From: Spirulina sp.
GTDB taxonomy: Bacteria; Cyanobacteriota; Cyanobacteriia; Phormidesmidales; Phormidesmidaceae
Length of the DNA: 64,000 nucleotides
Assembly: GCA_044070495.1 (NCBI GenBank)
Contig: JBIPSI010000001.1
Location: 160,001 to 224,000, forward strand
Direction: 5' to 3'
Numbering within the stretch: position 1 is the stretch's first letter; every line of letters starts with the position of its first letter. Below, piece after piece: positions 7,494 to 62,071 of the stretch. The notes beneath the pieces were generated by a model. That model ran no database searches and was not told the origin of the DNA. It was given only the letters and a program-made list of their open reading frames with translations. The translations under genes and the position numbers were made by a program.

Positions 7494-8195
7494 ATGGCTA
7501 TGCAATCGTTAGAGACTGAAACCACCTTTGACTATCAGTCTGAGGGTTACAAGGACGCCTACAGCCGCATCAACGCAATTGTGATTGAGGGTGAGCAGGA
7601 GGCCTACGACAACTACTGCAAGCTGGCGGAACGTCTGCCCGACCATGGGGCGGAACTGCTGCGTTTGGCCAAAATGGAAAGCCGCCACATGAAAGGCTTC
7701 CAAGCCTGCGGCAGGAACCTCTCCGTTACCCCCGACATGGACTTTGCGCGGGAGTTCTTCGCCCAACTGCACCGCAACTTCCAGCAGGCCTGGGCCGAGG
7801 GCAAAATCGTCACCTGCCTGCTGATCCAGTCCCTGATCATCGAAACCTTCGCCATTTCGGCCTACAACATCTATATTCCTGTGGCCGACGACTTTGCCCG
7901 CAAAATCACCGAAGGCGTGGTGAAGGACGAATACATGCACCTCAACTTTGGCGAAGAGTGGCTAAAGGCCAACTTTGAAGCCTCCAAGGAAGAACTGGAG
8001 CAGGCCAACCGGGAAAACCTACCCCTGGTGTGGGCCATGCTAAACCAGGTAGCCGACGATGCGCGGGTGCTGGGCATGGAAAAAGACGCCCTGATTGAAG
8101 ACTTCATGATCACCTACGGCGAAGCCCTAGCCAACATCGGCTTCTCCAGTCGGGAAGTGATGAAGCTCTCCGCCCAGGGGCTAGCCGCCGCTTAG
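7494..8195 (+). CDS. ado: Aldehyde-deformylating oxygenase
   Basis: [19 protein letters not shown], di-iron motifs ESRH and KDEYMH; adjacent to aar. Confidence 0.97.
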
Positions 8196-8238
8196 ACTAC
8201 CGCTGAGAAGTGGGTCTCTGTACTTGGTGGCCCCATTG

Positions 8239-8410
8239 TGAAGATCCCCCCTAGCCCCCCTTAGTAAGGGGGGAACTGGATTAAACGTTCCCCCTTTCCA
8301 CGGAGTAACCAGCGTCAAAGTCCCCCTTTTTAAGGGGGATTTAGGGGGATCTCCAAGGACGCTTCATAACCAAAGTCCCCCTTTTTAAGGGGGGTTCGGG
8401 GGGATCTTCA
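8239..8410. repeat. REP-like cluster of CCCCC-TT..AA-GGGGG hairpins inside an outer inverted repeat
   Basis: TGAAGATCCCCCC...GGGGGGATCTTCA outer IR enclosing three CCCCCTT(N)TAAGGGGG palindromes; a related sequence lies at 62475-62505. Confidence 0.75.
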
Positions 8411-8589
8411 GGGGCTGCGGATCCATCTGAGTTCTGTGTACACGGTAGCTCCCTGGGGAGGGTCGCCGCCGAGTCGTCGTCAGGGGTTTTCCCCTGGTTC
8501 GTGTTCATTGGGTCGGTAGCGGTTTATTCTAGGTAAATTGTTCCCCTGCACCACTTCCCCGGCGCACCCTACGCAGTAACGTATTTGCA

Positions 8590-9642
8590 ATGTTTGGCCT
8601 AATCGGACATCTCACTAGCCTCGACCATGCCCAAGCCGTCGCCCGTGATCTGGGATACCCAGAATACGCAGACCAGGGAATAGACTTTTGGTGTAGCGCA
8701 CCGCCGCAAATTGTAGATACCATCAAAGTCACTAGCGCCACGGGGCAGCAGATTGAAGGGAAATACGTAGAGTCCTGCTTTCTGCCGGAGATGTTAGCCT
8801 CCCGGCGGATCAAAGCGGCCACTCGCAAAATTATCAACGCCATGGCCCACGCCCAAAAGCACGGTATCGACATCACGGCCCTGGGTGGGTTTTCCTCGAT
8901 TATTTTTGAAAATTTCAACCTCAGCCAAATTCAGCAGGTACGCAACGTCACCCTAGAGTTTGAGCGCTTTACCACGGGCAACACCCACACCGCCTACATT
9001 ATTTGCCAGCAGGTCAAAGCGGCCTCGGCCATGCTGGGCATTAACCTGTCGGATGCCACCGTGGCGGTCTGTGGAGCCACCGGAGACATTGGCAGTGCGG
9101 TGTGCCGCTGGCTGAATGCCCGCACCGACATTAAGGATTTACTGTTAGTGGCCCGCAACCAAGAGCGCCTGCAAAACCTCCAAGAGGAACTGGGACGCGG
9201 TATGCCGATGGCCATGGATGCGGCCCTGCCCAAGGCGGATATTGTGGTGTGGGTAGCCAGTCTGCCCAAGGGCGTCACCGTGGATCCCACCACCCTGAAA
9301 CAGCCCTGCCTGATGATCGATGGCGGCTATCCCAAAAACCTGGATCAGCAGTTCAGCTTCGAGGGCGTCCACGTCCTCAAGGGTGGCATCGTCGAGCATT
9401 CCCTCGACATCGATTGGCGAATTATGAACATCGTCAACATGGATGTGCCTGCCCGCCAGCTCTTTGCCTGCTTTGCCGAGGCCATGCTGCTGGAGTTTGA
9501 GAAGTGGTACACCAATTTTTCCTGGGGCCGCAACCAAATCACCCTGGAAAAAATGGATTTGATCGGGCAGGCGTCGGTCAAGCACGGCTTCCGGCCTCTG
9601 CTGGATCTCAACCGCCAGCCCCTCACCGCCAAAGCCTCCTAG
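8590..9642 (+). CDS. aar: Long-chain acyl-ACP reductase
   Basis: [52 protein letters not shown]. Confidence 0.97.
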
Positions 9643-11655: not shown

Positions 11656-13320
11656 ATGACCATTCCCACAGATCGGACGGCGTTATACCAACTGCTTCTG
11701 GCTCTGCCGACCCCTCAGTTTGAAGCGCTGCTGTTTGACCTCAACCCGCCTAAGGGTAATATTTCGCCTCCCACCGCTCCCCGAGGGCAACGGGTGCCAG
11801 AATTGTTGGACTGGTTGGAAAGCCCCATTGGCCCCGGACTAGAGGCATTGAGAACCGCCGTAGAGCAGGTGGTCGTCGGTCACGAAAAAGGTAGCCGTGA
11901 CAAGCTCCCGGATCCACTGATCCCACAGAATCAAGGGACACCCGATTCGTCACCACGGGATGACAACGCACAAGATAACGATCCCCTCCCTCTCCCCAAG
12001 CGTCTGTTTCCCCTGCGCTTCAGTAAGACACTGATGATTTTGGCCCTGGTCAGTGGCTTTGGGGCGGCCTCCTTGGTGTCGGTCGTGCGCTTTTGGGGAG
12101 CCTTTGAACGGCTGGAACTGATGGCCTACGACCATGTGCTAACGGTAAGACCAGCGGAGCCCGTCAGTGATCGCATTATCGTCCTAGAAGCGAACCGAGC
12201 GGTGGTAGACGCTGAGCAAGCCAAAGAACCCAAAAATCTGGCAGAGACCCTATCCGATGCCACCCTCACCGCTGCCATTCAAAAACTCCAGGACTATGGC
12301 ACCAGCGTGATTGGCTTGGACTGGTATCTGCCCGCTGATCTCAGCCAGTGGTCGGCATCGGTTTTACCAGTCTTTCAGGCCTCTGATCCCGCAGGTCAAC
12401 GCTCGGCTATCTATGGCCTATGCCTCCAGCCCTACCAGGGGCGCACGGGGGAAGAAAATGCGGTACCCGCTCCCCATCCCCAGGCCATCCCCCCGGAGCG
12501 TGTGGGGTTTAGCAACTTTGCGACCGATGGCGATACCGTTCTGCGCCGACACCTGGTCAGCAATGGCCTAGGCGACACGGTTACCGCACCGCCCTGCCCC
12601 TCTACCCAAGCCTTTAGCACCCTCATTGCCCTACGGTACTTGGACGTCAACCATCCCGACCTTGGCCCCTTCCTTCCGCCAGACCTGTCAACCCCTTCAA
12701 CCTTGCGCCGCCAATCCACCCTCGGCCCCACAACCCTGGAGGGGCCGTACACCTATATTTATGGCGGCTACCAAAACCTAGACCCTGCGGCCTTGGAAAT
12801 CATGATCAACTACCGAGAACCGCCAGGGAATAATCTACGCGCCGCCTTTACCCATAAATCCCTCTACGACTTGCTAGAGAATCGGCTAGACCCCGCTGCC
12901 TTTCAAGGAAAAGTGGTGCTGCTAGGGCTAACGGACGATACCCGCATTAGCGACCGATTTTTAACCCCCTACGGTGACGAACTCGGCGTCACCCTGCAAG
13001 CCCACATGGTTGACCACCTGATCAGCTTGGCCCTGGGGGAACGACGGCAAATTTGGGTATGGACGAGGGGCGGCGAGTTTGCCTGGATTTTGCTGTGGGG
13101 TGTGATGGGCGGATGGCTGGGCGTTGTCGGGCGCAAACGACCTTGGTGGCTTACCGGATCGCTCGTGGCTGGGGTGTTGGGCATTTATCTAGCCAGTCGT
13201 TTGACGATGGGAGTCCTAGCCCTTTGGTTGCCCATGGTGCCGCCCATGGTGGCCTTCGTGCTGGCCCAAGGCACTGTGGTTTATACTGAGGCCACATTGC
13301 AAAGGAATCGCTCCGAATAG
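11656..13320 (+). CDS. CHASE2-domain membrane protein with a small N-terminal helical module and no C-terminal output domain
   Basis: TM helix then LELMAYD..L..RP, IGLDWY, VGFSNFATDGDTVLRR, GKVVLLG, GVTLQAHMV, followed by three TM helices and the stop. Confidence 0.85.
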   Translation: MTIPTDRTALYQLLLALPTPQFEALLFDLNPPKGNISPPTAPRGQRVPELLDWLESPIGPGLEALRTAVEQVVVGHEKGSRDKLPDPLIPQNQGTPDSSPRDDNAQDNDPLPLPKRLFPLRFSKTLMILALVSGFGAASLVSVVRFWGAFERLELMAYDHVLTVRPAEPVSDRIIVLEANRAVVDAEQAKEPKNLAETLSDATLTAAIQKLQDYGTSVIGLDWYLPADLSQWSASVLPVFQASDPAGQRSAIYGLCLQPYQGRTGEENAVPAPHPQAIPPERVGFSNFATDGDTVLRRHLVSNGLGDTVTAPPCPSTQAFSTLIALRYLDVNHPDLGPFLPPDLSTPSTLRRQSTLGPTTLEGPYTYIYGGYQNLDPAALEIMINYREPPGNNLRAAFTHKSLYDLLENRLDPAAFQGKVVLLGLTDDTRISDRFLTPYGDELGVTLQAHMVDHLISLALGERRQIWVWTRGGEFAWILLWGVMGGWLGVVGRKRPWWLTGSLVAGVLGIYLASRLTMGVLALWLPMVPPMVAFVLAQGTVVYTEATLQRNRSE

Positions 13321-13391
13321 CCTGGAGCCTACATAGGTCAAGCCAGGTCAAGCTAGGCTCCGTTCGATACAGGCCGAGGTGGGTATTAGCG

Positions 13392-14216
13392 ATGGCAAAC
13401 AAGTGGCTAGGACTCCTCATTGTGGCTGTCGGGTGGAGCTTTGTGGATTCCCCTAGCTGGGCCAATTCCCCAGCCTCAGATCCCGTCGCTGATACCATCC
13501 TCTATGCCCAGGGCAACCAGTCCGAGGGTTTTTGGGTACGAACCTGGCAACGGTTGCGGGGTCGCCCTGCCCCCAGCCAAAGAAGCGGTTCCACAGGGCG
13601 CGGTGGGGCCAACCACGACCGCTGCCTCTACACCACCGAAGAACTGCTGGCCCTAGTGCCCACCGCTGCCGATACAGGGCTGCCCTACCTAGAACCCATC
13701 CTCACGGGCTATCCCACCTGGTGGTTTTACGTGCCCTACGCTGGCAACGGTCGCCTCCAGGCCGAATTTGTGTTGATCGATGCCGACGAAACCATTCTTT
13801 ACGAACAGGCCATCACCGTGCCCCCAACCCCCGGAGTGATGCCTGTCTCCTGGCCCGAAACGGAGCCGCCCCTCTCCCCAGGGGAAGCCTACCGCTGGGT
13901 ATTTTCTATCCGCTGCAACCCCGCCAACCGCTCCGGCGATGCCACCGTCAACGGCTGGATCCAACGCGCCACCACCGAAGAGTCTGCCGCCCTCGCCACT
14001 CAGCTTGCCACCGCCCCCAACCCCTACCAAGTTCTCGCGGACTCCTTTTACTGGTTCGATCTTCTAGCTGCTCTCAACACCCTCAAAACCAGCGATCCCC
14101 AGCAGTTCTCGCCCCTGTGGGATGGGTTACTGTGCCAGGTCTATGCCCAGTCCGACCGCCTCGTTATCCCCACCGAAACCTGCCCCGATCTCTCCAGTCT
14201 GCCAGAACAAAACTAA
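13392..14216 (+). CDS. DUF928 family secreted protein
   Basis: Signal peptide; GGA..RC, LLALVP, PTWWFYVPY, EFVL.D, YRWVFSIRC, VNGWIQR, YWFDLL are typical DUF928 motifs. Confidence 0.85.
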   Translation: MANKWLGLLIVAVGWSFVDSPSWANSPASDPVADTILYAQGNQSEGFWVRTWQRLRGRPAPSQRSGSTGRGGANHDRCLYTTEELLALVPTAADTGLPYLEPILTGYPTWWFYVPYAGNGRLQAEFVLIDADETILYEQAITVPPTPGVMPVSWPETEPPLSPGEAYRWVFSIRCNPANRSGDATVNGWIQRATTEESAALATQLATAPNPYQVLADSFYWFDLLAALNTLKTSDPQQFSPLWDGLLCQVYAQSDRLVIPTETCPDLSSLPEQN

Positions 14217-14260
14217 TTCCCGTCCTTGGCTAACCTTGTCCCCTCTGCCCATCTCCAGCC

Positions 14261-17200
14261 ATGCCCCAGCCCCCAGAAAATCTCCAACACCGCCAACTCC
14301 AGCGATGGCTCAAGCCCTTTGGTATGGTCTCGCTCTTGGCCAGCAGCTACCTACTCACCCAGGCGGCCCAAGCCTTCGAGCCATTCCCACGGAGGGAGAT
14401 GCAATCCCACCTGCAAACGGGATTGGTCCAACTCCGCCAAACCCGCGTTCAACCCCTTGCATTGATCTCAGAAAGCCACCCCAATCCAGTCCTTTCTGAG
14501 GGCCTGGAAGGGCGAAATCTAGCCAAAGATATGGCTTTGTTAAGCCAGAACCCGCCAGATTCCCCAGCGGTTGAAGACCCTGAAGCTACTGAGCCGCCTT
14601 CCGAGCCTCAAGTATTGGTCGCTGAGGTAGTTGTAGAATCCCTAAGCGGTGAACTTCCTGCTGAGCTTAGAGATCTAATCTATGAGACTGTGCAGACCAG
14701 GGCAGGAAACACCACATCCCGCAGCCAACTTCAGCTAGACATTAACAATATTTTTACAACGGGCTTTTTTTCTGATGTCGATGCCCGCCCAGAAGATACA
14801 GATCTGGGTGTACGAGTTACGTTCATCGTACGGCCTAACCCCGTTCTCACCGATGTTCAGATCGTGGGAAATCAGGTGCTACCTTTAGCCATCGTTAATC
14901 AAATTTTTGCGAGTCAAAAGAATCGAATAATTAACCTACTTGATTTTCAAGATGGCATTGAATCTATTAATCAGTGGTATCAAGATAATGGTTATATCTT
15001 AGCTAAGATCATTGAGAATCCAAGGGTCTCCGACCAAGGAGTAGTTACTGTAGAAGTCACCGAAGGCGTGATTGAAGCCATTGAAGTACGGTTTGTGGAT
15101 GAGAACGGAAATACTACTAATGAGCAAGGCCAACCTATTCAAGGCAAAACTCAAGAGTATGTGATTTTGCGGGAGTTTCAAAGTCGTCCAGGTCATGTGT
15201 TTCAAGAATCTCGCATTGAGAGCGACTTTCAGAGGGTAAGAAATCTAGGGTTCTTAGGTAGAGTCACTCCTGGATTAGAGCCTAGTGAAGTTGACCCTCG
15301 CCAGATCAGGGTTATTATTAATATTAATGAGATTAAAAATAATTCGTTTTCAGCAGGGGCGGGAAGAAATTTTTCTGGCAATATTTTTCTTTCCGGCGGT
15401 TACAGCAACAAAAATCTTCTAGGACGAGGGCAAACACTAGCTTTCGAGACAGAGGTTGGCATTTCCGAAACAAAGCTTACTGCATCATTGAACAGTCCTG
15501 GCACTCTGGATAAATCACTTGCTACGCCTTCGGAATTAAATGGCGCAGTTAATGCTGTTAACATAGCCGTTAGTCGGATGAGAGAGCAACCTCTAGATAA
15601 GGAAAGACGCTTAGAGGCCATCGATAAAATGAAAAAGCTACACCGTCTTTCTCAAGCTACGAATAATAAATCTTTAGAGATATTAGTTCTGAACAATTTA
15701 ACCAACTTGTATTTGCGTGATAATGTTATTGACTTTCTTAAGACCTCTGACGAGGCGCTAGAGCTAATTAACAGGATTGAGAGTCCGGCTTTGGAAACGT
15801 ACTTTTTACTTCGTCAAGTCAAAGCCTATAGAGCCTTAAGTAAGCCTCAACGAGCATTGGATAACTATACTCAAGCACTGGAAAAGATCAACAAACTTCA
15901 AAAGAATGTTAATCTATCCAACTGGCTCGGCGAAGATATGTTTGACGCCTTGTCGGACGAATGGCATCTTAGAAGTCAAGAAGATTCGTTCTCTGACAAG
16001 GACATTGCTCAAGCGCTCAATCTAGTTAAATTGGGTATTTTATTGGACACAACTTTTACTTATAGTGTTCTCGGGGATTACCAAGCTGGGCTCTATATGG
16101 CCAGCTCGAATGAGTTTTCAAATACAACAAATTCATTGTTAGATTACATTAACAATTTTTTGAATAGCAATCTAATAAAATTGACATCAGTTGTCGGATC
16201 AAATGAGCCTAATAACGAAAAAGATGGCGATTTGGTTGAAGCATTCTTTTTCAATTTTTGGTTAGTCGAAGCCAAGAAAACTTATCAGGTTTTTCTCAGT
16301 AATATACCAGAAATTTACAAGAGAAAAACCCTCTCTATTCTCTTCTCTGATCTTGATGAGCTTGAATCAAGAGCTATTCAGGAGGCTCGAATTAAAGACA
16401 TGAGTATCTCTCCCAGGAAACAAATAAACCTGCTTTTGTACCGCTCAATGGAATTCCTGTCTAGTCCTGATTATCTTAGTAGCGACGGATTCTTGAGTGG
16501 ATTTGGTGCAGATTTTATGGGGCCTGTTTTGCTTGAGATCCAACCGCTTATCCCAGAGGCATTTGATCTTGAAACTCAGATGTGGAATGCAGAAAAACTA
16601 GAGGCTATCATCAATATTTCAAAAGACTCTCTAATTCAGCATTTTTCTGAATCGGGAGACCAGCAAACAATTACGCTAGTCAATCAGTTCAGCGGTCTGA
16701 TTGATTTTTTTGTACAAAGCTTTGTATCCGGGTCTCGTTTTGAGAAGGATAGCCCTGAGTATTATCAGTACAGGGTAGAACTTGCTCAGACTGCTTTAAG
16801 GGACTGGCAGGGCCAAAATAGTATCAGTCGGGAGTTTGATTGGACTAAAGGATTTATTCTGAAATCTCAGGGTGATGCTCACTATCGGCTTGGCGACTAT
16901 GAAACAGCGGCTTCTGTTTATGAAAGTGCTATTCCATTCTTGATCAAGGCCGAAGAGTTTTATAAAGGAGGATTTAGAAACTCAAATCCTAAAATCCAGA
17001 GCTTCATAGGAGCAGTCAAACATAATGAAAGCTTGTCATGGGCGAATCAACTCATTTTTCAAATACTTTTTTCTCAACGTCTCTCGACTTCCTTAAGCGC
17101 GGCTGATGCCCATCTAGAACTGAAAAAATCAAGTACGGCAAAAGCCCGATATCTTGACGCCTTGGAGCTTAGTGAGAGAGTCATAGCAGAAGAATTTGTC

Positions 17201-18904
17201 TACAAACAGACTGAACTGTCAGAAATTTACTACGGCCTAGCACGGGCTGAGGCAATGTTAGGCAATGCTAAAGAGGCAGAAGAGGCAATAGAACAATCAA
17301 TTGCTATTAGTGAATCATCCTTTCCCAATGAGTCGGTCTCTGGCGGCACTGGGGTTCTAGATTTGGGATTTACCTACGGCTATGGTCTGCCCTATCGAGG
17401 ATCAATTTCGGCCAGCTTTAAACTTGAGACAGAAAATCCCTGGTTAGCGGCAAGTACGAATCAAGATTTTTTAGTAGAGCGACGTTGTGCGACGGTAACA
17501 CAGTATTTTGAATGTCGGCAAAAATATTTTGACTTTTACATTAGCTGGCTATTGCAACAGCACCAGGCCAACCCCACGATGGGGTTTGATGTAAGGGCCT
17601 TTGAGGCCAGTGAGCAGGCCAAATCCTTCAGTTTTCGGCGACCCGATAGCGAGGTTTCGGCTCAGGATCGGTTTGCTCCGACTCGTACTTTGGCGGAGAT
17701 TCAGGCGGCAATTGGGGACAACGAAACGCTGGTGCTGGAATATTTTCTGGGTCAGGAAGTCAGCTATTTGTGGATGCTAGGCCAGGATGGGGCGCTGCAA
17801 GTTTACACCCTACCCCCTCGCGCCGAGATTGAAGCCCAGGCCCAGGTGTTCTACGACCTGTTGACCTCGCCGACCGGGCGGGTGCGGCCCCAAACGACGG
17901 CCCAGGCGGGGGCGGCCCTCAGTAACATGATTCTTGGCCCCGTGGCCGACCAACTGGGCACCCAGCGCTTGGTGATCGTGGCCGATGGATTGTTGCAGTA
18001 TCTTCCCTTCGCCGCCCTGCCCAACCCCAACCCCGACAACCTGCCGACGGTCTCAGCCCAGCAAGGGGAATATGGCCCTGCGCTGAATCCCCTGCTGCTG
18101 GATCACGAGGTGGTGCATCTGCCCTCGGCCTCTACCTTGGTGGCGCTGCGGCGCAATGCCCCCTCGCGGCCCCAGCCTACCCAGGAACTCGCCTTTTTCG
18201 CCAATCCTGTTTTCAATCACAAAGACGAACGGGTGCGGCAGGTAAAGCTGTTCCCTTGGTCACGGCCCTTTAGTCAGGCGGAACTAGACAACATCGAAGC
18301 CCTCTACAGCGCCATTCCCGCCACCGAGGAAGAGTTAGACCGCATCCTAGCCGCTAACCTACTGCCAGAAGGCAAGGTGAAAACCTTCTTTGGCTACGAG
18401 GCCAACCTTGAGGCGGCGCTAGATTCCCAGTTGGGGCAGTATCGCATCGTGCACTTTGCCTCCCACGGCATTTTCAATAGCAATGCCCCAGAGCGTTCCG
18501 GCGTGGTGCTGTCGGGCCTCAGCGAGGCTGGGGTGGTGCAGGCGGGTCTATTGTCGCCCACCTACGCCTTTAACGACATGAACCTTTCTGCTACGGAACT
18601 GGTCGTCCTCAGCGGTTGCCGCACGGGGCTAAGCCAGGGCCACATTGGCCGCGAGGGCATGACCGGGCTCACCAATGGCCTGTTTGATGCCGGGGCCGAG
18701 CGCGTGGTGGCCAGCCTGTGGAGCGTGCGAGATGACGCTACCCGTGAGCTGATGAATCGGTTCTATGGGTTAATGCTAGACCCAGAAAACCCGCTACCGC
18801 CCGCCCAGGCCCTCACCGAGGCCCAGCGCTCGATGTGGAACGAACCCCGCTGGCAAACCCCCTACAACTGGGCCGCGTTTACGCTCCAGGGCGTTTGGGA
18901 GTAG
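14261..18904 (+). CDS. Fusion protein: signal peptide, BamA/Omp85 POTRA1-3 plus ~4 beta-strands, TPR-like helical region, CHAT protease
   Basis: aa ~115-415 match the cyanobacterial Omp85 N-terminus (VLVAEVVV, TSRSQLQLDINNIFTTGFF, WYQDNGY, GKTQEYVILREF, NLLGRGQTL). The C-terminal CHAT domain has IVADGLLQYLPFAAL, VHFASHG, LVVLSGCRTG, VVASLWSV and PYNWAAFTLQG. Confidence 0.85.
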   Translation: MPQPPENLQHRQLQRWLKPFGMVSLLASSYLLTQAAQAFEPFPRREMQSHLQTGLVQLRQTRVQPLALISESHPNPVLSEGLEGRNLAKDMALLSQNPPDSPAVEDPEATEPPSEPQVLVAEVVVESLSGELPAELRDLIYETVQTRAGNTTSRSQLQLDINNIFTTGFFSDVDARPEDTDLGVRVTFIVRPNPVLTDVQIVGNQVLPLAIVNQIFASQKNRIINLLDFQDGIESINQWYQDNGYILAKIIENPRVSDQGVVTVEVTEGVIEAIEVRFVDENGNTTNEQGQPIQGKTQEYVILREFQSRPGHVFQESRIESDFQRVRNLGFLGRVTPGLEPSEVDPRQIRVIININEIKNNSFSAGAGRNFSGNIFLSGGYSNKNLLGRGQTLAFETEVGISETKLTASLNSPGTLDKSLATPSELNGAVNAVNIAVSRMREQPLDKERRLEAIDKMKKLHRLSQATNNKSLEILVLNNLTNLYLRDNVIDFLKTSDEALELINRIESPALETYFLLRQVKAYRALSKPQRALDNYTQALEKINKLQKNVNLSNWLGEDMFDALSDEWHLRSQEDSFSDKDIAQALNLVKLGILLDTTFTYSVLGDYQAGLYMASSNEFSNTTNSLLDYINNFLNSNLIKLTSVVGSNEPNNEKDGDLVEAFFFNFWLVEAKKTYQVFLSNIPEIYKRKTLSILFSDLDELESRAIQEARIKDMSISPRKQINLLLYRSMEFLSSPDYLSSDGFLSGFGADFMGPVLLEIQPLIPEAFDLETQMWNAEKLEAIINISKDSLIQHFSESGDQQTITLVNQFSGLIDFFVQSFVSGSRFEKDSPEYYQYRVELAQTALRDWQGQNSISREFDWTKGFILKSQGDAHYRLGDYETAASVYESAIPFLIKAEEFYKGGFRNSNPKIQSFIGAVKHNESLSWANQLIFQILFSQRLSTSLSAADAHLELKKSSTAKARYLDALELSERVIAEEFVYKQTELSEIYYGLARAEAMLGNAKEAEEAIEQSIAISESSFPNESVSGGTGVLDLGFTYGYGLPYRGSISASFKLETENPWLAASTNQDFLVERRCATVTQYFECRQKYFDFYISWLLQQHQANPTMGFDVRAFEASEQAKSFSFRRPDSEVSAQDRFAPTRTLAEIQAAIGDNETLVLEYFLGQEVSYLWMLGQDGALQVYTLPPRAEIEAQAQVFYDLLTSPTGRVRPQTTAQAGAALSNMILGPVADQLGTQRLVIVADGLLQYLPFAALPNPNPDNLPTVSAQQGEYGPALNPLLLDHEVVHLPSASTLVALRRNAPSRPQPTQELAFFANPVFNHKDERVRQVKLFPWSRPFSQAELDNIEALYSAIPATEEELDRILAANLLPEGKVKTFFGYEANLEAALDSQLGQYRIVHFASHGIFNSNAPERSGVVLSGLSEAGVVQAGLLSPTYAFNDMNLSATELVVLSGCRTGLSQGHIGREGMTGLTNGLFDAGAERVVASLWSVRDDATRELMNRFYGLMLDPENPLPPAQALTEAQRSMWNEPRWQTPYNWAAFTLQGVWE

Positions 18905-20248: not shown

Positions 20249-21916
20249 TCATTCCCACTCGGCGGCGTATTGCAGCAATAGGGGCGGCAGCTTGAGGTCG
20301 GCGGGGGTACGATGGCGGGCCTCAAACACGCCTACAATGTCCTTGGGGCCGGGGTTACCCTTGGCCTGTCCGGTCACACCGCTAGCAATCACCACGGCGC
20401 AGCAGCCCCCGCTTTTCTGCTGCCACTGATCCCACCGTTCCAACTGGCGCTGATCGGGGCCGGGGTCACTTTCGTACTCGGCAAACAGGTGCAGTTCGCT
20501 ATCTCCGGTTTGCAGGAGTCCTAGTTCAAAATGGACGCCGTTAAAGGGATCGCTGCCAGGGTTAAAACACACAGCCTGAACGCCCTGGGCTGATTGCAGG
20601 TCTTTGATCAGAGCCTTGGCCTTGGGGCGGGAGGTCTGAATGATCACCACGGGCAGGGTGGCTTGCTTGGGCAGAGGGCCATCGGGATGATCGGCGTAGG
20701 CCACCATAGGATCCAGTTTGGCAAACTCCAGCCAGGATCGTTTGATTTGGGTAAGCAAAATAAGCGCCCCCTCCGGCACATAGTCGTCGCGCAGGACGGG
20801 GAAGGTGAGAACGTCATCGCTGTCGTCGTCGTCACCAATCGCTTGCTCGGTTTGTTCCAGCAGCTCTTCAGTAACTTCCGGCAGGGTTTTGACCGTTACC
20901 TTGAGGGCCGGAGCGCTGCTTTTTTCTGGATTGGGAATGCGATAGCTGCCCTTTAGATCGGGGTAGGGGGGCTTTTCTAGGCGCGACCGATGCTTGGACA
21001 GGAACCGCTGGAGCGCCTCCATGGCCACGAGAAAAATGGCTCCCTCTTCGTCGGCCAGTTGGCTTCGCAGTCCTTCCAGGGGGTGAATACTGCCAAAGAT
21101 TGGATCCACCGCATCGGGGGCGGCGTTGGCCCAGCCTAAGGCCGCAAAGGGGCCGCTGGGAACCGGATCCTCCAACAGTTCAAAGTTTACAAACAGGCAG
21201 TCCTGCTCTAAAAAGGCCTCCTGCATTTGTTTGGGCGATTGTTGTCCCATCAGCACCCGTTCCCGAAACTGTTTCAGGGAGTCTAGGGTGCGGTACATCA
21301 ACAGACCATACTCCACCCCGCCCATGCCCAGCACCGAAACATAGAGGGTCTCAATATCCCAAGCGTTTAGCTCGATAGCGATCACCTGCTGCTCGTTGAG
21401 GCTGTGCCAGGGGCCAAGTTCCCAGACTTCCATGGCCTTGTCGATCATGGCGTCGCCGTAGCGTTCGGGCAATTCCGCTTCCTCCAGGCCGCTAGCCTGC
21501 TGGAGGGCGTTGAACAACTCGTCAATCAGCGGCAGTTCCGGGGCGTAATCTACTTCAATATCCAGCCCTTGAATCGCTCCACGCAGGTAAAACTGAATCT
21601 CCCGATCACTCACCACAATCTTTTTAGGGCGGGCCGGAGGCAGGGAACTTTGGGGCGATTCGATAGCCTGGATCAGGGTGCGAACAATCGGCTCGTAGCC
21701 GCTGCTAGAGGGCACCATGGTAATGCCGCGTACCGTGCCGTGGCCGCTGTCTACCCAAAGAATACAGTCGCTATGTTCACTACTCCCATTGCGATTCCAG
21801 GTGTTCGCATCTTCCTCCACCAGTCCACTCATCGGTCGCCGAGCCCCCTCCCATACGCTAGCAATCCGGGGCAGCTGCTTGAGGCGATCAATGGTAATAC
21901 GGTTCAATCGAGTCAT
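20249..21916 (-). CDS. Conserved cyanobacterial hypothetical protein
   Basis: 555-aa ORF with native codon usage (RLKQLP...WEG.RR, CILWVD, ARPKKIVV.DREIQF.LRG); function unknown. Confidence 0.8.
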   Translation of the reverse strand: MTRLNRITIDRLKQLPRIASVWEGARRPMSGLVEEDANTWNRNGSSEHSDCILWVDSGHGTVRGITMVPSSSGYEPIVRTLIQAIESPQSSLPPARPKKIVVSDREIQFYLRGAIQGLDIEVDYAPELPLIDELFNALQQASGLEEAELPERYGDAMIDKAMEVWELGPWHSLNEQQVIAIELNAWDIETLYVSVLGMGGVEYGLLMYRTLDSLKQFRERVLMGQQSPKQMQEAFLEQDCLFVNFELLEDPVPSGPFAALGWANAAPDAVDPIFGSIHPLEGLRSQLADEEGAIFLVAMEALQRFLSKHRSRLEKPPYPDLKGSYRIPNPEKSSAPALKVTVKTLPEVTEELLEQTEQAIGDDDDSDDVLTFPVLRDDYVPEGALILLTQIKRSWLEFAKLDPMVAYADHPDGPLPKQATLPVVIIQTSRPKAKALIKDLQSAQGVQAVCFNPGSDPFNGVHFELGLLQTGDSELHLFAEYESDPGPDQRQLERWDQWQQKSGGCCAVVIASGVTGQAKGNPGPKDIVGVFEARHRTPADLKLPPLLLQYAAEWE

Positions 21917-23916: not shown

Positions 23917-24584
23917 CACCAGTCGGCCTCTGAGGGGGTGGATTGAGGGGTGGCCTGACGCTCTAGGGTAAGTTGTCCCTGGTTCAGTCGCCAGCAGCAA
24001 TCTGCTAGGTGGGCCAGTTCATCGGCATCGTGGGACACCACCAGTAGCGTCCAGTTCTGCTTGAGCTGTTGCAGAAGGCCGATGATTTGCTGCCGCATCG
24101 ACCAATCTAGCCCCGCCGTGGGTTCATCCAGCAGCAGCAGGTAGGGCTTACGAATGAGCTGTACCGCTAGGGCCAACCGCCGCTGCTGGCCACCGCTGAG
24201 GGAGTGGGGCAGGGCGGTGAGGGCCAACTGATCAAGCCCCACCGCCTTCAGGGCTTGGTTAATCTGGGGCCGATCCAGTTCGGGGTGGCCCAGGCGCAGT
24301 TCCTCTAGAATGGTGTGGCCGCAAAAGTGTCGCTCTGGAAACTGGAATACTAAGCCTGCAATCTGGCGCAAGGCTTCCGGCTCCAGGGTTTGGTCGCGCC
24401 ACTGAATCTGCCCTGAGCTGGGCCGAGCAAAGCCCGCCATCAGCTCCAATAATGTACTTTTTCCCGACCCGCTAGGGCCATAGATCACCCCCAACTGCTG
24501 GGGAGCCAAGTCTAAGGACACCTGGTTTAGGATAGCCGCTGGGGTGGCCGGAGGATGGTAGGTCAGTTGGTCAAGGTGCAACAT
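23916..24584 (-). CDS. ABC transporter ATP-binding protein (CbiO/EcfA-like)
   Basis: GPSGSGKST, GLVFQFPERHF, LSGGQQRR, LLLDEP; likely start MLHLDQ. Confidence 0.9.
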   Translation of the reverse strand: MLHLDQLTYHPPATPAAILNQVSLDLAPQQLGVIYGPSGSGKSTLLELMAGFARPSSGQIQWRDQTLEPEALRQIAGLVFQFPERHFCGHTILEELRLGHPELDRPQINQALKAVGLDQLALTALPHSLSGGQQRRLALAVQLIRKPYLLLLDEPTAGLDWSMRQQIIGLLQQLKQNWTLLVVSHDADELAHLADCCWRLNQGQLTLERQATPQSTPSEADW

Positions 24585-24883
24585 GGGTGAAACAGGAGGA
24601 TTCCCTGGGGCATGTTCAGTGTGCCCCAAATTGACTTCAAGGCAGCGACAAGAAGAGCAGTAGGACAGTGTAGCATCTGTAACAGTGGCTCGACCCATTT
24701 CTGGGTGGGGGGAATCACAATAAAAGCGAGTATCAATGACAATCCATCCTCCTTTTTGATCCTCTACGCCGTTGCGGGTTGAGGACGGCCTAGGTGGATG
24801 AACTTGAGGGTTATCTACCGCCCGTTTCCCTGGCCCCGTTATCGTCAGTTCGATAGGCTCCGGTCGTAACTTTCTTTAATGTA

Positions 24884-25843
24884 GTGAGTAATTCTATGGT
24901 GGTTCAATCATCCCAACGGTCTGCAACGGTCCTACGATTCCGCCGCCCTCGGTGGCAAACCTGGTTAGCCACCACCCTCACGACCGCCATGGTTGGTTTA
25001 ACGGCCCTGCCAGCCCTAGCGGGGGATCCCTTCCGCCCCAGCAATCCCCACGCCATTGGCGAGGCCACCGAGGCCACCTTCGAGGCTCTGTTCTACGAAG
25101 GGGACTACACCGAGGCGCAGCGTTTGGTCAATCAGGCCATCGCCGCTGAGCCAAACGAGCCCATGAACTACGCCATTGCCGCCGCCCTCGACTATCTCAA
25201 TCAAGACCTCAGTTCGCTGCTGGAAAAAGCCCAGCAGACCCAGTCCGTTGCCGCCACCCTGAAGGAAACCGATCCCCTGCGCGGCCACCTCTATACCGCC
25301 GTGGGCATTTTCCTAGAGGGTGCCCACGTTATCCAAAGCCGGGGGTTAGCTCGCGGCACCCCTACGGTACTGCGCATGTTGCAGCAGGTGTTTGCCGAAC
25401 TAGATGCTGCCGAGGCCATCAGCCCCAACGATCCTGAACTGAGCCTGCTGAAGGGCTTTATGGATTTGCTGTTGGCGGTAAACTTGCCCTTCGCTAACCC
25501 CGATCAGGCCATTAGCCGCCTGCAACAGGGCCACCCCGACTACCTCTCCCAGCGGGGCATTGCCATTGGTCTGCGCGACCTCAAACGCTACGACGAAGCC
25601 CTAGTGGCCGTCAACAACGCCCTAGTGGCCGCTCCCAATAACCCCGACCTGATGTATCTCAAAGCTCAGATTCTCTTCCTCAAGCAGGACTATCAAGGGA
25701 GCCTGCCCTACTACGCCAGCGCCCTCACCTATGCCGATCAACTGCCCACATCTACCGTGCAGCGGATCCGGTTTGAGGAATGCCAAGCCCAGGGGCAAGA
25801 CTCCTCTATCTGCGGCACCTACCTCCAGGCTGGTCAAAATTAG
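24884..25843 (+). CDS. Sll0314/Alr1548-family secreted TPR protein
   Basis: Signal peptide ending PALA|GDPFR; DPLRGHLY.AVG.FLEGA; DPEL.LLKGFMDLLLAVNLPF. Start is 24884 (GTG) or 24896 (ATG). Confidence 0.8.
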   Translation: MSNSMVVQSSQRSATVLRFRRPRWQTWLATTLTTAMVGLTALPALAGDPFRPSNPHAIGEATEATFEALFYEGDYTEAQRLVNQAIAAEPNEPMNYAIAAALDYLNQDLSSLLEKAQQTQSVAATLKETDPLRGHLYTAVGIFLEGAHVIQSRGLARGTPTVLRMLQQVFAELDAAEAISPNDPELSLLKGFMDLLLAVNLPFANPDQAISRLQQGHPDYLSQRGIAIGLRDLKRYDEALVAVNNALVAAPNNPDLMYLKAQILFLKQDYQGSLPYYASALTYADQLPTSTVQRIRFEECQAQGQDSSICGTYLQAGQN

Positions 25844-42257: not shown

Positions 42258-43874
42258 TTAGGCGGCGAGTTGGGCTTCCTCCTGGGCGGGGGTGGCGAGT
42301 TTGGTGGCTTGGTAGGCCGCGAGCTGCTCTTCGATGTTTTGGCGCACGATTTGGCGGAAGTCGATGAAGTGCTCGGCCTGGGCGCAGACGGAGACATAGC
42401 TGGCGGCCACGGCGGGGTAACGCCAGAGCATGATGGCCAAGTTCACCCAGAAACGTAGGCGGGTTTTACGCAGGATTCCCTGCCGCCACAGGATGATGAA
42501 AAAGGCTCGCAGGGTAATCCAGTTAATGCTGGGCGATCCGGCGGCGGCGGCGCTTTTTTTGACGTTGCGTCGTCGTTGGGAGTTGCGCTTGCGGGCTTCT
42601 CCCAGGATCAAATAATGGCGGAAGGTGCGGTTCAACACCACTAGCGGATCGTACAAGTCCCAGAAGGTTTGGATAAATTCCTCGGTGATGTCTTCGATGG
42701 GGCGGGTGGGCACGAAGTTCATCAGGGTGGCCTGGTTGATGTCGGCACTCTTGCCCAGCAGGCGACCTTCTTTCTCTAGGCGATGCCAGAGGGCGGTGTC
42801 GGGCAGGGCTTGCAGCATACTCACCATGGCGGTGGGAATGGCGGTTTGCTCCACGAATTGATAGATGCGTTCGCCTGCGCCCTTCTTCTCGCCGTCAAAG
42901 CCAACGATGAACCCAGCCATCACCCGCATTCCCGATTTGGCAATGGCCACCACCGAGTCGGACAGGGGATCGCGAACATTTTGGAACTTCTTGGTGAGGG
43001 CAAGGCTGTCGTCGTCGGGGGTTTCGATGCCCAAAAAGACGGTACCGAAGTTGCAGTCCACCATCATCTGCATCAGTTCAGGATCCTGGGCCAAGTCCAC
43101 CGAGGCCTCGGTGGCAAAGGAGAAGGGATAGCCGTGATCCTCCATCCAGGGCTTCATGGCCGTCAGCAGGCGCTTAACGTTGCGCTTGTTGCCGATGAAG
43201 TTGTCATCCACCATAAAGATGCTGCGCCGCCAGCCCAGGTCGTAGAGGTACTGAAGCTCGGCCAAAAGCTGTTCCGGTTCCTTGGTGCGGGGTTTGCGAC
43301 CGTAGAGCACGATGATGTCGCAAAATTCGCACTGGAAAGGGCAACCCCGCGAAAACTGAACCGACATTTCGGCGTAGGCATCCAGTTCCAGCAGGTCGTA
43401 GCGGGGGATGGGGGTTTCGGTAACGGCGGGTTTTTCGCCCCCGGATCGGAAGGTGCCGCTGCGGTCGCCCCGTTCCACGGCCTCCACAAACATGGGCAGG
43501 GTAATTTCCCCTTCATCCAAAATCAAAAAGTCTGCCCCGGCTGCTTCCGCTTCGTGGGGGAGCGAGGTCGGATAAGGGCCACCCACAGCGACGAGCTTGC
43601 CGTATTCCTTGGCGGTCTGAATGGCGGCTAAAAAGTCGGGCCGATGGACGATCATGGCGGACACGATCACAATGTCGGCCCAACGCCATTCAGCGTCCTC
43701 AACCTCGCGCACATTGCGGTCTACCAGCTTAAAGTTCCAGCTTTGGGGCAAAATCGCCGCCACCGTCACCAGCCCCAGAGGCGGTAGCTGAGCCTTCATG
43801 CCTACCAGTTCGAGGGTTTTATCAAAGGACCAAAAACTTTTCGGAAAACGAGGATAAACCAACAGAATGTTCAT
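42258..43874 (-). CDS. B12-binding radical SAM protein (DUF4070-type C-terminus)
   Basis: N-terminal cobalamin-binding region (PPLGL.TVAA, GGPY), CPFQCEFC motif, VDDNFIGN, FLGIET. Confidence 0.9.
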   Translation of the reverse strand: MNILLVYPRFPKSFWSFDKTLELVGMKAQLPPLGLVTVAAILPQSWNFKLVDRNVREVEDAEWRWADIVIVSAMIVHRPDFLAAIQTAKEYGKLVAVGGPYPTSLPHEAEAAGADFLILDEGEITLPMFVEAVERGDRSGTFRSGGEKPAVTETPIPRYDLLELDAYAEMSVQFSRGCPFQCEFCDIIVLYGRKPRTKEPEQLLAELQYLYDLGWRRSIFMVDDNFIGNKRNVKRLLTAMKPWMEDHGYPFSFATEASVDLAQDPELMQMMVDCNFGTVFLGIETPDDDSLALTKKFQNVRDPLSDSVVAIAKSGMRVMAGFIVGFDGEKKGAGERIYQFVEQTAIPTAMVSMLQALPDTALWHRLEKEGRLLGKSADINQATLMNFVPTRPIEDITEEFIQTFWDLYDPLVVLNRTFRHYLILGEARKRNSQRRRNVKKSAAAAGSPSINWITLRAFFIILWRQGILRKTRLRFWVNLAIMLWRYPAVAASYVSVCAQAEHFIDFRQIVRQNIEEQLAAYQATKLATPAQEEAQLAA

Positions 43875-61919: not shown

Positions 61920-62071
61920 AGAGGATTTCGGCTCTGAGCCTTGGACTTCGAGTTCTGGGTTCCTTGACTACCCCCACCAGGGAGTTCACTCCCTGGCTCA
62001 TAGCAACAGTCTGCTGAAATTGTTTCGGGAAATCAGGCTGAGCAGATCGCAAAGTCTCCGCAGCCCACCCT

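Follow-up and report, generated by a model that had tools for sequence, protein, structure and literature searches.

CHASE2 receptors usually carry a C-terminal cytoplasmic output domain (kinase, cyclase, or GGDEF). In the DegS-RseA-RseB-sigmaE and CpxP-DegP-CpxA pathways of E. coli, an inner-membrane signalling protein is altered once a periplasmic protease has sensed outer-membrane proteins that failed to assemble or has degraded an inhibitor in the periplasm. At the outer membrane, the POTRA domains and first barrel strands of BamA receive the beta-signal of nascent outer-membrane proteins, and POTRA domains of Omp85 proteins bind outer-membrane or two-partner-secreted substrates.

According to the main text of Kaur, Iyer, Burroughs, and Aravind (eLife 2021, PMC8195603), EACC2-caspase proteins have variable C-terminal sensors including CHASE2 and are accompanied by an ECF sigma factor and DUF1822; no mention of DUF928 or CHAT was found in that main text. 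Effector-associated domains (EADs) of NTPase-centered conflict systems are described in the main text of Kaur et al. (eLife 2020, PMC7159879) as small helical modules with copies on the core and the effectors, and the term "CHASE2" has no occurrence there. In Anabaena PCC 7120, HetF-PatU3 is a case of a CHAT-domain protease for which a specific protein substrate has been demonstrated (PNAS 2022, PMC9457339), and the portion of that article covered here contains no link of HetF to POTRA, DUF928, or CHASE2. For Sinorhizobium meliloti NsrA with CyaK and CyaD1/D2 (CHASE2-domain cyclases), a signal of protein nature and the need for an outer-membrane partner have been reported (PMC7529298, PMC13001267). 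Among the sources covered, these cyclases are the only CHASE2 receptors whose input has been studied; their output is the fused cyclase, and DUF928, CHAT, and an adaptor are absent from the parts of the two articles considered.

We analyzed a locus of three genes in a DNA stretch of 64,000 nucleotides, referred to as the window. The features of the locus are as follows.

11656..13320, + strand: CHASE2 receptor gene (ORF), P0001, 554 aa
11659..11874, + strand: cytoplasmic four-helix adaptor, putatively of the effector-associated-domain type, residues 2-73 of P0001
12073..13113, + strand: periplasmic CHASE2 domain, residues 140-486 of P0001 (Pfam PF05226)
13321..13391, no strand: 71-nt gap from CHASE2 to DUF928, with a GAGG-type ribosome-binding motif ahead of the DUF928 start
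13392..14216, + strand: gene for an exported DUF928 protein (ORF), P0002, 274 aa
14217..14260, no strand: 44-nt gap from DUF928 to the CHAT gene
14261..18904, + strand: gene for an exported BamA-POTRA/TPR-like/CHAT protease (ORF), P0003, 1547 aa
14558..17560, + strand: AT-shifted, fast-evolving tract, codons ~100-1100 of the P0003 gene (from GC3)
14651..15499, + strand: BamA-derived module, residues 131-413 of P0003, comprising POTRA1-3 and roughly the first 50 barrel residues
17906..18892, + strand: CHAT caspase-fold protease domain, residues 1216-1544 of P0003 (Pfam PF12770)
18452-18469, + strand: CHAT His motif HFASHG
18608-18619, + strand: CHAT Cys motif LSGC

An earlier note on this DNA had described three co-oriented genes, separated by 71 and 44 nt and lying between lipid genes and argJ, and the ORFs and flanking genes agree with this description. 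Upstream lie genes for an aldehyde decarbonylase, a reductase-like protein, an acyltransferase, and an alpha/beta hydrolase; downstream of the CHAT gene lies argJ on the minus strand. No terminator-like site was found in either gap. None of P0001, P0002, and P0003 matched the anti-phage models of PADLOC-DB 2.0, and no study of the CHASE2-DUF928-CHAT trio was found in the literature searched. The note had also placed the working parts of all three proteins outside the cytoplasm, and the anatomy indeed has them facing the periplasm: both signal peptides that it had reported were seen by eye, with cleavage after SWA in P0002 and after AQA in P0003, and the CHASE2 domain does lie between transmembrane helices, one before it and three after.

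The order of P0001 is adaptor, linker, transmembrane helix, periplasmic CHASE2 domain, and three transmembrane helices. The CHASE2 match was strong (E = 8.8e-42; 143.9 bits against a Pfam cut-off of 26.3), and a confident AF2 model (mean pLDDT 86.9) together with hydropathy placed the helices at residues 121-146 and, for the three behind CHASE2, within residues 471-553. Neither Pfam nor the model revealed a C-terminal output domain; the protein ends just past the last transmembrane helix, and its sole cytoplasmic domain is the N-terminal adaptor.

The "cytoplasmic adaptor module" that the earlier note had invoked proved to be real. It is a small (~70 aa), all-helical, non-enzymatic domain at the protein terminus, with helices in P0001 at residues 7-16, 19-29, 43-55, and 62-77 and block-mean pLDDT values of 87-97 over residues 1-70. 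Pfam models, including EAD1-EAD11, gave no match to it at E ≤ 1, nor to eight other copies at E ≤ 0.1. Clusters scored as adaptor look-alikes carry EAD7 (25-72% of members) and EAD1 (18-77%); these scores are labelled by the tool as leads, and naming the adaptor effector-associated-type is a lead of the same standing. Among the best 110 of 970 representative clusters, the partner domains of the adaptor were Pentapeptide (24), TRADD-like_N (18), TIR_2 (12), NACHT (10), CHAT (6), and EAD1 (5).

The genome encodes 12 copies of the adaptor. The copy closest to that of P0001 lies on residues 223-294 of P0208 (74% identity [73-74%]; E = 9e-33), and the remaining 10 copies are at most 53% identical to the P0001 adaptor. 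P0208 is a caspase-like protein without a signal peptide, encoded outside the window (G000:C10:148920-150029, minus strand) beside a NACHT NTPase gene, and it matched the "chat" model of PADLOC-DB 2.0 (4.3e-17). Other carriers are NACHT and NB-ARC NTPases, a trypsin-like protease, a Clp_N protein, and a TRADD-N/pentapeptide protein. In Leptolyngbya sp. CCY15150, caspase-like, adaptor, and CHASE2 domains form one polypeptide, P0201, a Rosetta-stone fusion whose residues 1-241 are 59% identical to residues 56-296 of P0208 (E = 9e-99). Phormidium FACHB-1136 has a split receptor together with an orthologue of P0208 that is 90% identical and has kept the NACHT neighbor, and its cognate adaptor pair is 70% identical, compared with at most 49% for other copies.

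As judged from sequence, this distribution matches the EAD principle in the main text of Kaur et al. 2020 (PMC7159879): copies occur on a sensor and on effectors across the genome, the cognate pair is the most alike, and the adaptor is linked to cyanobacterial TRADD-N/pentapeptide proteins. Whereas the EAD systems described there are centered on an NTPase, the core component here is a receptor in the membrane whose sensor is extracytoplasmic. Like the EACC2-caspase systems of the main text of PMC8195603, the module would pair a CHASE2 receptor with a cytoplasmic caspase-fold protease. Unlike them, P0001 has no fused caspase domain and carries only the adaptor, with the protease encoded elsewhere, and no sigma factor or DUF1822 gene flanks the trio. 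The fusion absent from P0001 is present in its orthologue P0201 and in a paralogue of this genome, the C16 locus (sigma/DUF1822/caspase-like-CHASE2/DUF928), an arrangement also found in L072-L077 and L081-L082. The 74% adaptor identity could, however, stem from a fused gene that split recently, without continued interaction, and P0208, which shares a separate operon with a NACHT NTPase, may answer to that NTPase alone. A further, improbable reading makes P0208 one executioner with two arms, giving bacteria an equivalent of the two-armed control of caspases in animals. The extracytoplasmic arm would consist of the BamA-mimicking protease, DUF928 in the role of ligand or substrate, and CHASE2 as a "death receptor" bearing a death-fold-like adaptor; in this arm, POTRA and the first barrel strands would sense assembly failure or foreign beta-strand proteins; the other arm would be the NACHT NLR, taken to share a private amyloid-like motif with P0208.

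The exported protease P0003 carries a CHAT domain (E = 1e-63, 215.9 bits) whose His/Cys dyad was found at the positions that the earlier note gave. Both motifs were retained in 13 of 13 family members covering them; on this basis, the domain, its dyad intact, is predicted to be a protease. HetF, in the portion of PMC9457339 covered, is likewise a cyanobacterial CHAT-domain protease, but its role lies in cell division and in the control of heterocysts. Of the "POTRA/TPR part" proposed earlier, the POTRA portion is present (E = 1.7e-19 in Pfam; partial matches to TIGR00992 and TIGR03303) and is specifically a BamA copy with a barrel start, whereas for TPR there were only weak Pfam matches in the middle of the protein. 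Residues 131-413 align without gaps, at 55% identity, to residues 281-563 of the 854-aa BamA encoded in the same genome (G000:C58). The barrel-start segment is retained in the 10 closest family members, and 13 homologues have POTRA and CHAT together. P0003 is like BamA/Omp85 in having POTRA1-3 and the start of the barrel and unlike it in lacking a 16-stranded barrel: the BamA alignment ends at residue 413, and no Omp85/ShlB Pfam match was found in P0003. Because the BamA-derived module is fused to a protease, P0003 cannot be an insertase. In the AT-shifted tract, GC3 is 0.31-0.48, compared with 0.63-0.81 at the ends of the gene and 0.64-0.77 in neighboring genes. The shift at synonymous sites and the fast evolution of the helical protease middle were seen across the family.

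P0002 matched DUF928 (Pfam PF06051) over residues 71-250 (E = 3.1e-35; 122.1 bits against a cut-off of 26), with the conserved columns of the family present. The structural model comprises a seven-stranded beta-sandwich (residues 100-192) followed by a helical bundle (residues 195-251), suggesting that the DUF928 fold is a non-enzymatic beta-sandwich plus helices. Ahead of it is a flexible N-terminal arm of ~55 aa, modelled with low confidence, that holds a conserved basic/Gly motif and Cys78. In the literature searched, a single paper names DUF928.

The earlier note had stated that CHAT, DUF928, and CHASE2 genes recur together and had suggested gene-neighborhood searches. In this genome, all four DUF928 genes adjoin a co-oriented CHASE2 gene (upstream, within ~2 kb), with a CHAT gene within 15 kb; the cytoplasmic modules of the four receptors differ (caspase-like, His-kinase-type ATPase, Ser/Thr kinase, and adaptor). 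Among 31 public DUF928 loci, 29 had upstream DNA, and in 28 of these a co-oriented CHASE2 gene lies directly upstream of DUF928. A CHAT gene was found within 10 kb in 24 of the 31, usually immediately adjacent (15 being of the BamA-POTRA type), and was not found in the fetched flanks of the other seven. These counts are far beyond chance. The trio is conserved as claimed, although the obligate pair is CHASE2 and DUF928, with CHAT as a frequent third; the protease is not obligatory beside the pair, given the seven loci without it in the flanks. These results show that the module is built around a CHASE2 membrane receptor and, from the gene immediately downstream, an exported DUF928 protein, the usual third being an exported CHAT protease. 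In most public loci, the CHAT gene runs convergently to the pair and so is not co-transcribed with it there, making the putative three-gene operon special to the lineage of this window.

Distance matrices of DUF928 and CHASE2 were correlated over 32 loci (r = 0.86), as were those of DUF928 and CHAT (r = 0.905) and of CHASE2 and CHAT (r = 0.92) over 11 loci; none of 2,000 permutations reached the observed Mantel correlations, which are inflated by shared ancestry. DUF928 and CHASE2 had the same nearest neighbor in just 16 of 32 loci. Near-identical whole modules occur in Nostoc, a Calothrix plasmid, and Iphinoe, indicating that the set moves as a unit. That the three genes are chance neighbors with no common role is hardly credible, being contradicted by both the neighborhood counts and the co-variation. 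We also consider it unlikely that two separate functions travel together in an island shared via accessory-gene clustering, with CHASE2 and DUF928 forming a self-contained sensor of small molecules or peptides and POTRA-CHAT working independently as a periplasmic protease for quality control or processing. This would fit the seven loci without CHAT in the fetched flanks, the mostly separate, convergent CHAT unit elsewhere, and the 23 CHAT and 11 CHASE2 matches in the genome, numbers at which some proximity is expected. It is opposed by the usually immediate adjacency in the 24 loci, by CHAT distances that parallel the DUF928 and CHASE2 distances (r 0.90-0.92, 11 loci), and by the near-identical whole modules.

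In the three paralogous loci of this genome, as in L076-L078, TpsA/TpsB genes neighbor the module, and one of the TpsA proteins has a CHAT domain at its end. This neighborhood and the lack of a classical output domain on P0001 would suit an inside-out, LapD-LapG-like scheme, in which a cytoplasmic state, via the adaptor or the kinase and caspase modules of the paralogues, changes the CHASE2-DUF928 complex; the CHAT protease, held or released by it, would then process outer-membrane or two-partner-secreted proteins bound by the BamA-like POTRA. We regard this scheme as rather doubtful, since no TPS or TpsB gene flanks the window locus or most POTRA-CHAT loci, caspase-like domains, kinases, and cyclases in the cytoplasm typically serve as outputs rather than inputs, and the fusion P0201 puts an effector-type protease on the receptor. 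P0003 itself has no match to the TPS domain (PF05860), whereas the paralogous loci do have TPS proteins.

Our preferred reading, held tentatively and at somewhat less than an even chance, is that the three genes represent one instance of a trans-envelope signalling module that is conserved in cyanobacteria and runs from CHAT through DUF928, CHASE2, and the adaptor to P0208; its outside-in direction is assumed. The BamA-like and variable parts of the periplasmic protease would recognize a protein cue at the outer membrane, such as beta-strand proteins that are foreign or have failed to assemble; the protein signal and outer-membrane partner reported for the S. meliloti CHASE2 cyclases speak for an input of this kind. 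The CHAT protease would then act on DUF928, with the flexible conserved arm as substrate or tethered ligand, and the change in DUF928 would alter the state of the CHASE2 receptor. The receptor adaptor would cluster and recruit the cognate adaptor on P0208, switching on the cytoplasmic protease by proximity. Possible outcomes are envelope-stress control, defence, or cell suicide. By analogy, the scheme would follow the logic by which a death receptor feeds into a caspase; with the DegS and CpxP pathways, the module would share logic only, the protein families being unrelated.

From sequence comparison, three aspects of the locus appear to be new: the derivation of the protease N-terminal part from the genome's own BamA, a CHASE2 receptor that has the adaptor it shares with P0208 in place of a C-terminal output, and the family-wide AT shift in the fast-evolving protease middle. 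What CHASE2 domains sense has been a question since the domain was described, and the locus offers a compact, testable system for it. It supplies a near-obligate periplasmic partner of CHASE2, DUF928; a candidate input enzyme, whose recognizable substrate-binding part is borrowed from BamA; and, unusually, an identifiable output, in which a specific adaptor pair would lead to a caspase-like protease, as supported by a natural fusion in another species. Together, these would make up a route, open to testing, that leads from the cell envelope to an enzyme of the cell-death type. If the proposed route is true, the adaptor logic of bacterial cell death and immunity would extend from cytoplasmic NTPase sensors to an outward-looking receptor, and caspase-fold proteolysis would operate on both sides of the inner membrane.

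The CHASE2 receptor (P0001, 554 aa), the DUF928 protein (P0002, 274 aa) and the POTRA-TPR-CHAT protease (P0003) are encoded by three co-oriented ORFs separated by gaps of 71 nt (CHASE2/DUF928) and 44 nt (DUF928/CHAT), as the earlier note had described. Its placement of this trio between lipid-type genes and argJ was also upheld, the HFASHG and LSGC motifs of the CHAT His/Cys pair were found where it had put them, and its anatomy of the three proteins proved right.

The trio, its CHAT motifs and its flanks in the window
11656-13320, plus strand: CHASE2 receptor gene, an ORF with Pfam CHASE2 at residues 140-486 (E 8.8e-42)
13392-14216, plus strand: DUF928 gene, an ORF with Pfam DUF928 at residues 71-250 (E 3.1e-35)
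14261-18904, plus strand: POTRA-TPR-CHAT gene (1547 aa), with Pfam POTRA (E 1.7e-19), weak TPR, and CHAT at residues 1216-1544 (E 1e-63)
18452-18469, plus strand: CHAT His motif
18608-18619, plus strand: CHAT Cys motif
Upstream flank: aldehyde decarbonylase, reductase-like gene, acyltransferase and alpha/beta hydrolase
Downstream flank: argJ, on the opposite strand

The signal peptides of the DUF928 and CHAT proteins were called by eye from their N-termini. A consensus promoter/terminator scan detected no terminator-like site within either gap of the trio, and its promoter-like sites (6 seen against 5.2 expected) were uninformative. No trio protein had a PADLOC match, and NCBIfam gave no useful match beyond partial TIGR00992 and TIGR03303 matches on the CHAT protein, which lie in its BamA-like part. 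Four DNA metagenome runs, each from a different study, contained contigs at least 85% alike that spanned CHASE2, DUF928 and the two ends of the CHAT gene. Positions 15516-16519 of this gene were uncovered in all four runs, absent cover being no evidence of absence, and loose contig ends lay within the gene at 16735, 16789 and 17318 (X1) and at 16828, 16904 and 17222 (X5). Upstream, the aldehyde decarbonylase gene (E 3e-123) followed by the reductase-like gene at 7494-9642 resembles the ordinary cyanobacterial alkane-synthesis pair and is separate from the trio finding. On the other side, a 555-aa protein with DUF6930 and DUF7309 domains adjoins argJ (20249-21916, minus strand).

The genome (5.3 Mb, 74 contigs) contained 4 DUF928, 11 CHASE2 and 23 CHAT matches, and all four DUF928 genes adjoin a CHASE2 gene and lie within 15 kb of a CHAT gene.

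Cytoplasmic part of the receptor at the four DUF928 loci
Window: short N-terminal module
Contig C16: caspase-like, with a sigma-like gene and DUF1822 upstream
Contig C18: histidine-kinase-type ATPase
Contig C6: Ser/Thr kinase

Two-partner-secretion genes are present at the C16, C18 and C6 loci. Paralogous module genes and neighbours at C6:131010-133851 and C16:104309-108697 have a GC content of 0.38-0.47 against a genome mean of 0.567, and parts of these copies, too, look foreign or fast-evolving. CHASE2 has been described among the variable C-terminal sensors of EACC2-caspase proteins, whose gene neighbours include an ECF sigma factor and DUF1822 (Kaur et al. 2021, PMC8195603); neither DUF928 nor CHAT was found in the main text of that paper.

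For public genomes, one genome per species was scanned with a 68-sequence DUF928 alignment, and the resulting 31 loci were annotated with HMMs from the paralogues of this genome. Of the 29 loci having upstream DNA, 28 have a co-oriented CHASE2 gene immediately upstream of DUF928; in the exception, L078, CHASE2 is 7.7 kb from DUF928. A CHAT gene was found within the fetched flanks of 24 of the 31 loci and in none of the remaining 7. It is of the BamA-POTRA type at 15 of the 24 (14 with the near-duplicate contigs L061 and L062 merged), although at L053 and L055 the gene was seen by its start only, at the contig end. The POTRA-CHAT gene mostly runs convergently to the CHASE2-DUF928 pair; apart from the window locus, only the closest relatives of that locus (L053-L055) have it co-oriented with the pair. 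The three genes do recur together, with the CHAT gene as a frequent but less constant and mostly convergent third member. The invariant core is the CHASE2-DUF928 pair and not the trio.

One of two main rival explanations is a looser link, with the protease independent of the CHASE2-DUF928 sensor pair instead of acting on DUF928, as it would in the mechanism we propose. In comparisons of distance matrices, DUF928 and its adjacent CHASE2 domain correlated at r = 0.86 (32 loci), and the CHAT domain correlated at 0.905 with DUF928 and at 0.92 with CHASE2 over 11 loci, with 0 of 2000 permutations as high; such values are inflated by shared ancestry and are read only as inheritance of the genes as a set. 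DUF928 was found in 19 of the 26 relatives searched, with 1-8 matches apiece. The CHASE2 domains of L058 (Nostoc sp. PA-18-2419), L059 (Calothrix brevissima NIES-22 plasmid4) and L079 (Iphinoe sp.) are near-identical (branch lengths 0.005-0.02). Likeness of this degree across three cyanobacterial families, with one copy plasmid-borne, indicates that the whole module was recently transferred horizontally. Phormidium sp. FACHB-1136, a close relative, has the flanking hydrolase at 89% identity and ArgJ at 97%, yet both are on contigs apart from the trio, and its trio is preceded by DNA that matches C18, C24 and C49 of this genome instead of the window. The module is mobile as a set and not only inherited.

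In the receptor model (mean pLDDT 86.9), a four-helix domain (residues 7-77), hereafter the adaptor, is followed by a disordered linker (80-119), a TM helix and CHASE2; the protein ends with three TM helices. The whole model had no Foldseek match to structures at E<=0.001. A profile search of the CHASE2 alignment against solved structures returned only a CHAT chain, matching caspase-like N-parts, and a sequence-profile search with the adaptor returned nothing. The Atlas model of the adaptor aligned with CARD/death-domain models at TM 0.56-0.72, all under the naming bar. No Pfam EAD model matched the adaptor itself; its language-model look-alikes carry EAD7 and EAD1.

The genome contains 12 copies of the adaptor module. 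Residues 2-73 of P0001 are 74% identical (E 9e-33) to residues 223-294 of P0208, whereas all copies other than this pair are 33-53% identical. P0208, encoded on contig C10, has 346 aa and no hydrophobic segment, and its N-terminal half is caspase/CHAT-like with HFSGHG and LNGC motifs. The other bearers are two NB-ARC/TPR proteins, two NACHT proteins, a trypsin-like protease, a Clp_N protein, a TRADD-N/pentapeptide protein, two proteins of unknown family and one fragment. Adjacent genes at C7:59081-59944 and 60842-61927 (287 and 361 aa, family unknown) each start with an adaptor module. Under the effector-associated domain principle (Kaur et al. 2020, PMC7159879), a core protein has one copy of a domain, effectors that may be encoded elsewhere have others, and cognate copies are most alike; the distribution of the adaptor matches this principle. 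A profile of 13 module copies retrieved 970 representative clusters at E<=0.001. Among the 110 top-ranked hits scanned with Pfam, we found Pentapeptide (24), TRADD-like_N (18), TIR_2 (12), NACHT (10), CHAT (6), TIR (6) and EAD1, EAD9 and NB-ARC (5 each). CHASE2 was not among the 25 families listed for these 110 (smallest count 2), indicating that adaptor-CHASE2 receptors are rare among module bearers. In the representative library, P0218 (810 aa, no Pfam match at E<=1e-4) and P0219 (1583 aa) contain 7 and 5 tandem adaptor modules and could be hub or scaffold proteins of an adaptor network.

A natural fusion was found in P0201, the orthologous receptor of Leptolyngbya sp. CCY15150, in which a caspase-like domain, the adaptor and CHASE2 are on a single chain. 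Residues 1-241 of this chain share 59% identity with residues 56-296 of P0208 (E 9e-99), and the DUF928 and POTRA-CHAT orthologues of this strain come from contigs of equal length (167174). The five closer receptor orthologues (P0196-P0200) are all of the adaptor-CHASE2 form. In FACHB-1136, which has the split receptor, the P0208 orthologue is 90% identical and is followed by the same NACHT gene (80% identity). This Rosetta-stone fusion, together with the co-occurrence in FACHB-1136, appears to tie the receptor and P0208 together. The analysis adds to the earlier note an identifiable putative output pathway for the receptor. An N/Q/G/S-rich motif, identical at 21 of 31 residues, is shared by the C-terminal tail of P0208 and residues 38-69 of the NACHT NTPase (711 aa) that overlaps it downstream; these are its only two copies in the genome.

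G000:C10:148891-149110 (L043 ~8891-9110), minus strand, outside the window: shared P0208/NACHT motif

The arrangement is that described for bacterial NLR-associated amyloid signalling motifs, for which CHAT is among the known effectors (10.1101/2020.01.06.895854).

The alignment of DUF928 shows a hydrophobic N-terminus, a basic/Gly-rich motif closed by Cys78, which is nearly invariant, and conserved motifs in the core. Its AlphaFold model (mean pLDDT 80.6, pTM 0.73) is low-confidence over most of residues 1-78 (pLDDT <50 in 1-4, 22-43, 65-69 and 71-74), followed by a seven-stranded beta-sandwich (100-192) and a helical bundle (195-251). Foldseek matches were generic Ig/FnIII/carbohydrate-binding sandwiches; the MtxA C-terminal domain (4z29, E 1.3e-5) was the sole match covering both sub-domains, with a VIA-align Z of 8.8 over 155 aligned residues (rmsd 4.5). 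A sequence-profile search against solved structures gave none at E<=1. Nothing suggests that DUF928 is an enzyme; a binding module whose conserved arm is flexible would suit either a co-receptor or a protease substrate. In the literature searched, only one paper was found to mention DUF928, in a CHASE2-DUF928-WD40 cluster of Nostoc punctiforme.

Residues 131-413 of P0003 align gap-free at 55% identity with residues 281-563 of the BamA of the same genome (854 aa). This stretch comprises POTRA1-3 and approximately the first 50 barrel residues, with the remaining barrel absent. The N-part of the protease is thus a BamA copy, an origin that the earlier note had not defined. Thirteen homologues with both POTRA and CHAT (31-69% identity) were present in the protein collection, so P0003 is not a one-off chimera; the barrel-start segment is retained in the 10 closest family members and missing from the 4 most distant. 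No paper in the literature searched was found to contain both "CHAT domain" and "POTRA".

The GC3 of the P0003 gene is 0.63 over codons 1-100, 0.31-0.48 over codons ~100-1100 and 0.64-0.81 beyond, compared with 0.64-0.77 in neighbouring genes. Identity to the closest homologue is 74-78% in the N-part, 84-99% at the CHAT end and 42-66% over residues 301-1000. Taking the dip as the mean of deciles 3-6 against that of deciles 1, 9 and 10, worked by hand, we found a dip of at least 0.11 in 8 of 11 other POTRA-CHAT genes; L060 and L061 lack it. Because the dip runs through the family, one recent transfer from a low-GC donor was no longer kept as the only explanation. Even the AT-rich Nostocales genes show it (GC3 0.28 to 0.12 to 0.37), which makes a still more AT-rich donor implausible. 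The middle of P0003 is better read as a fast-evolving variable region with a drift towards AT, to which cassette exchange between the well-conserved gene ends may have contributed. The mid-gene drop (14558-17560 in the window, and in the POTRA-CHAT genes of L054, L056, L058, L059, L063, L066, L067, L071 and L079) recurs in genomes of very different base composition and is unusual within a single ORF; relaxed constraint, diversifying selection or repeated cassette exchange may be the cause. The CHAT gene contains a single trivial tandem repeat. The 51-kb contig C35 has at least 10 CHAT genes. Within TPR-CHAT genes of this contig, near-identical 120-nt repeats that code for TPRs form arrays (23967-25553 and 42280-42909), and such repeats could drive recombination between paralogues. 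A motif search on C35 gave only this repeat and an intergenic pattern common to just 4 regions; no comparable pattern was seen by eye upstream of the trio.

This analysis established how the three proteins are built, with a model of the receptor topology, and that their gene neighbourhood is conserved, the catalytic dyad is intact, P0001 and P0208 carry an adaptor pair, and a natural fusion exists. The sensor-protease mechanism put forward in the earlier note is plausible. The exported protease would recognise a protein cue via its BamA-like and variable parts and then act on DUF928; DUF928 may in turn set the state of CHASE2, and the receptor adaptor would recruit P0208. The DegS/RseA/RseB and CpxP/DegP/CpxA pathways follow a similar logic, and the paralogous sigma/DUF1822 loci give this analogy some substance. 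The other main rival explanation is signalling in the opposite direction, in the LapD-LapG pattern. The one studied CHASE2 system fits a protein-type input that reaches the receptor via an envelope partner (PMC7529298, PMC13001267). The module is real and conserved, and the copy in the window is an informative variant of it.
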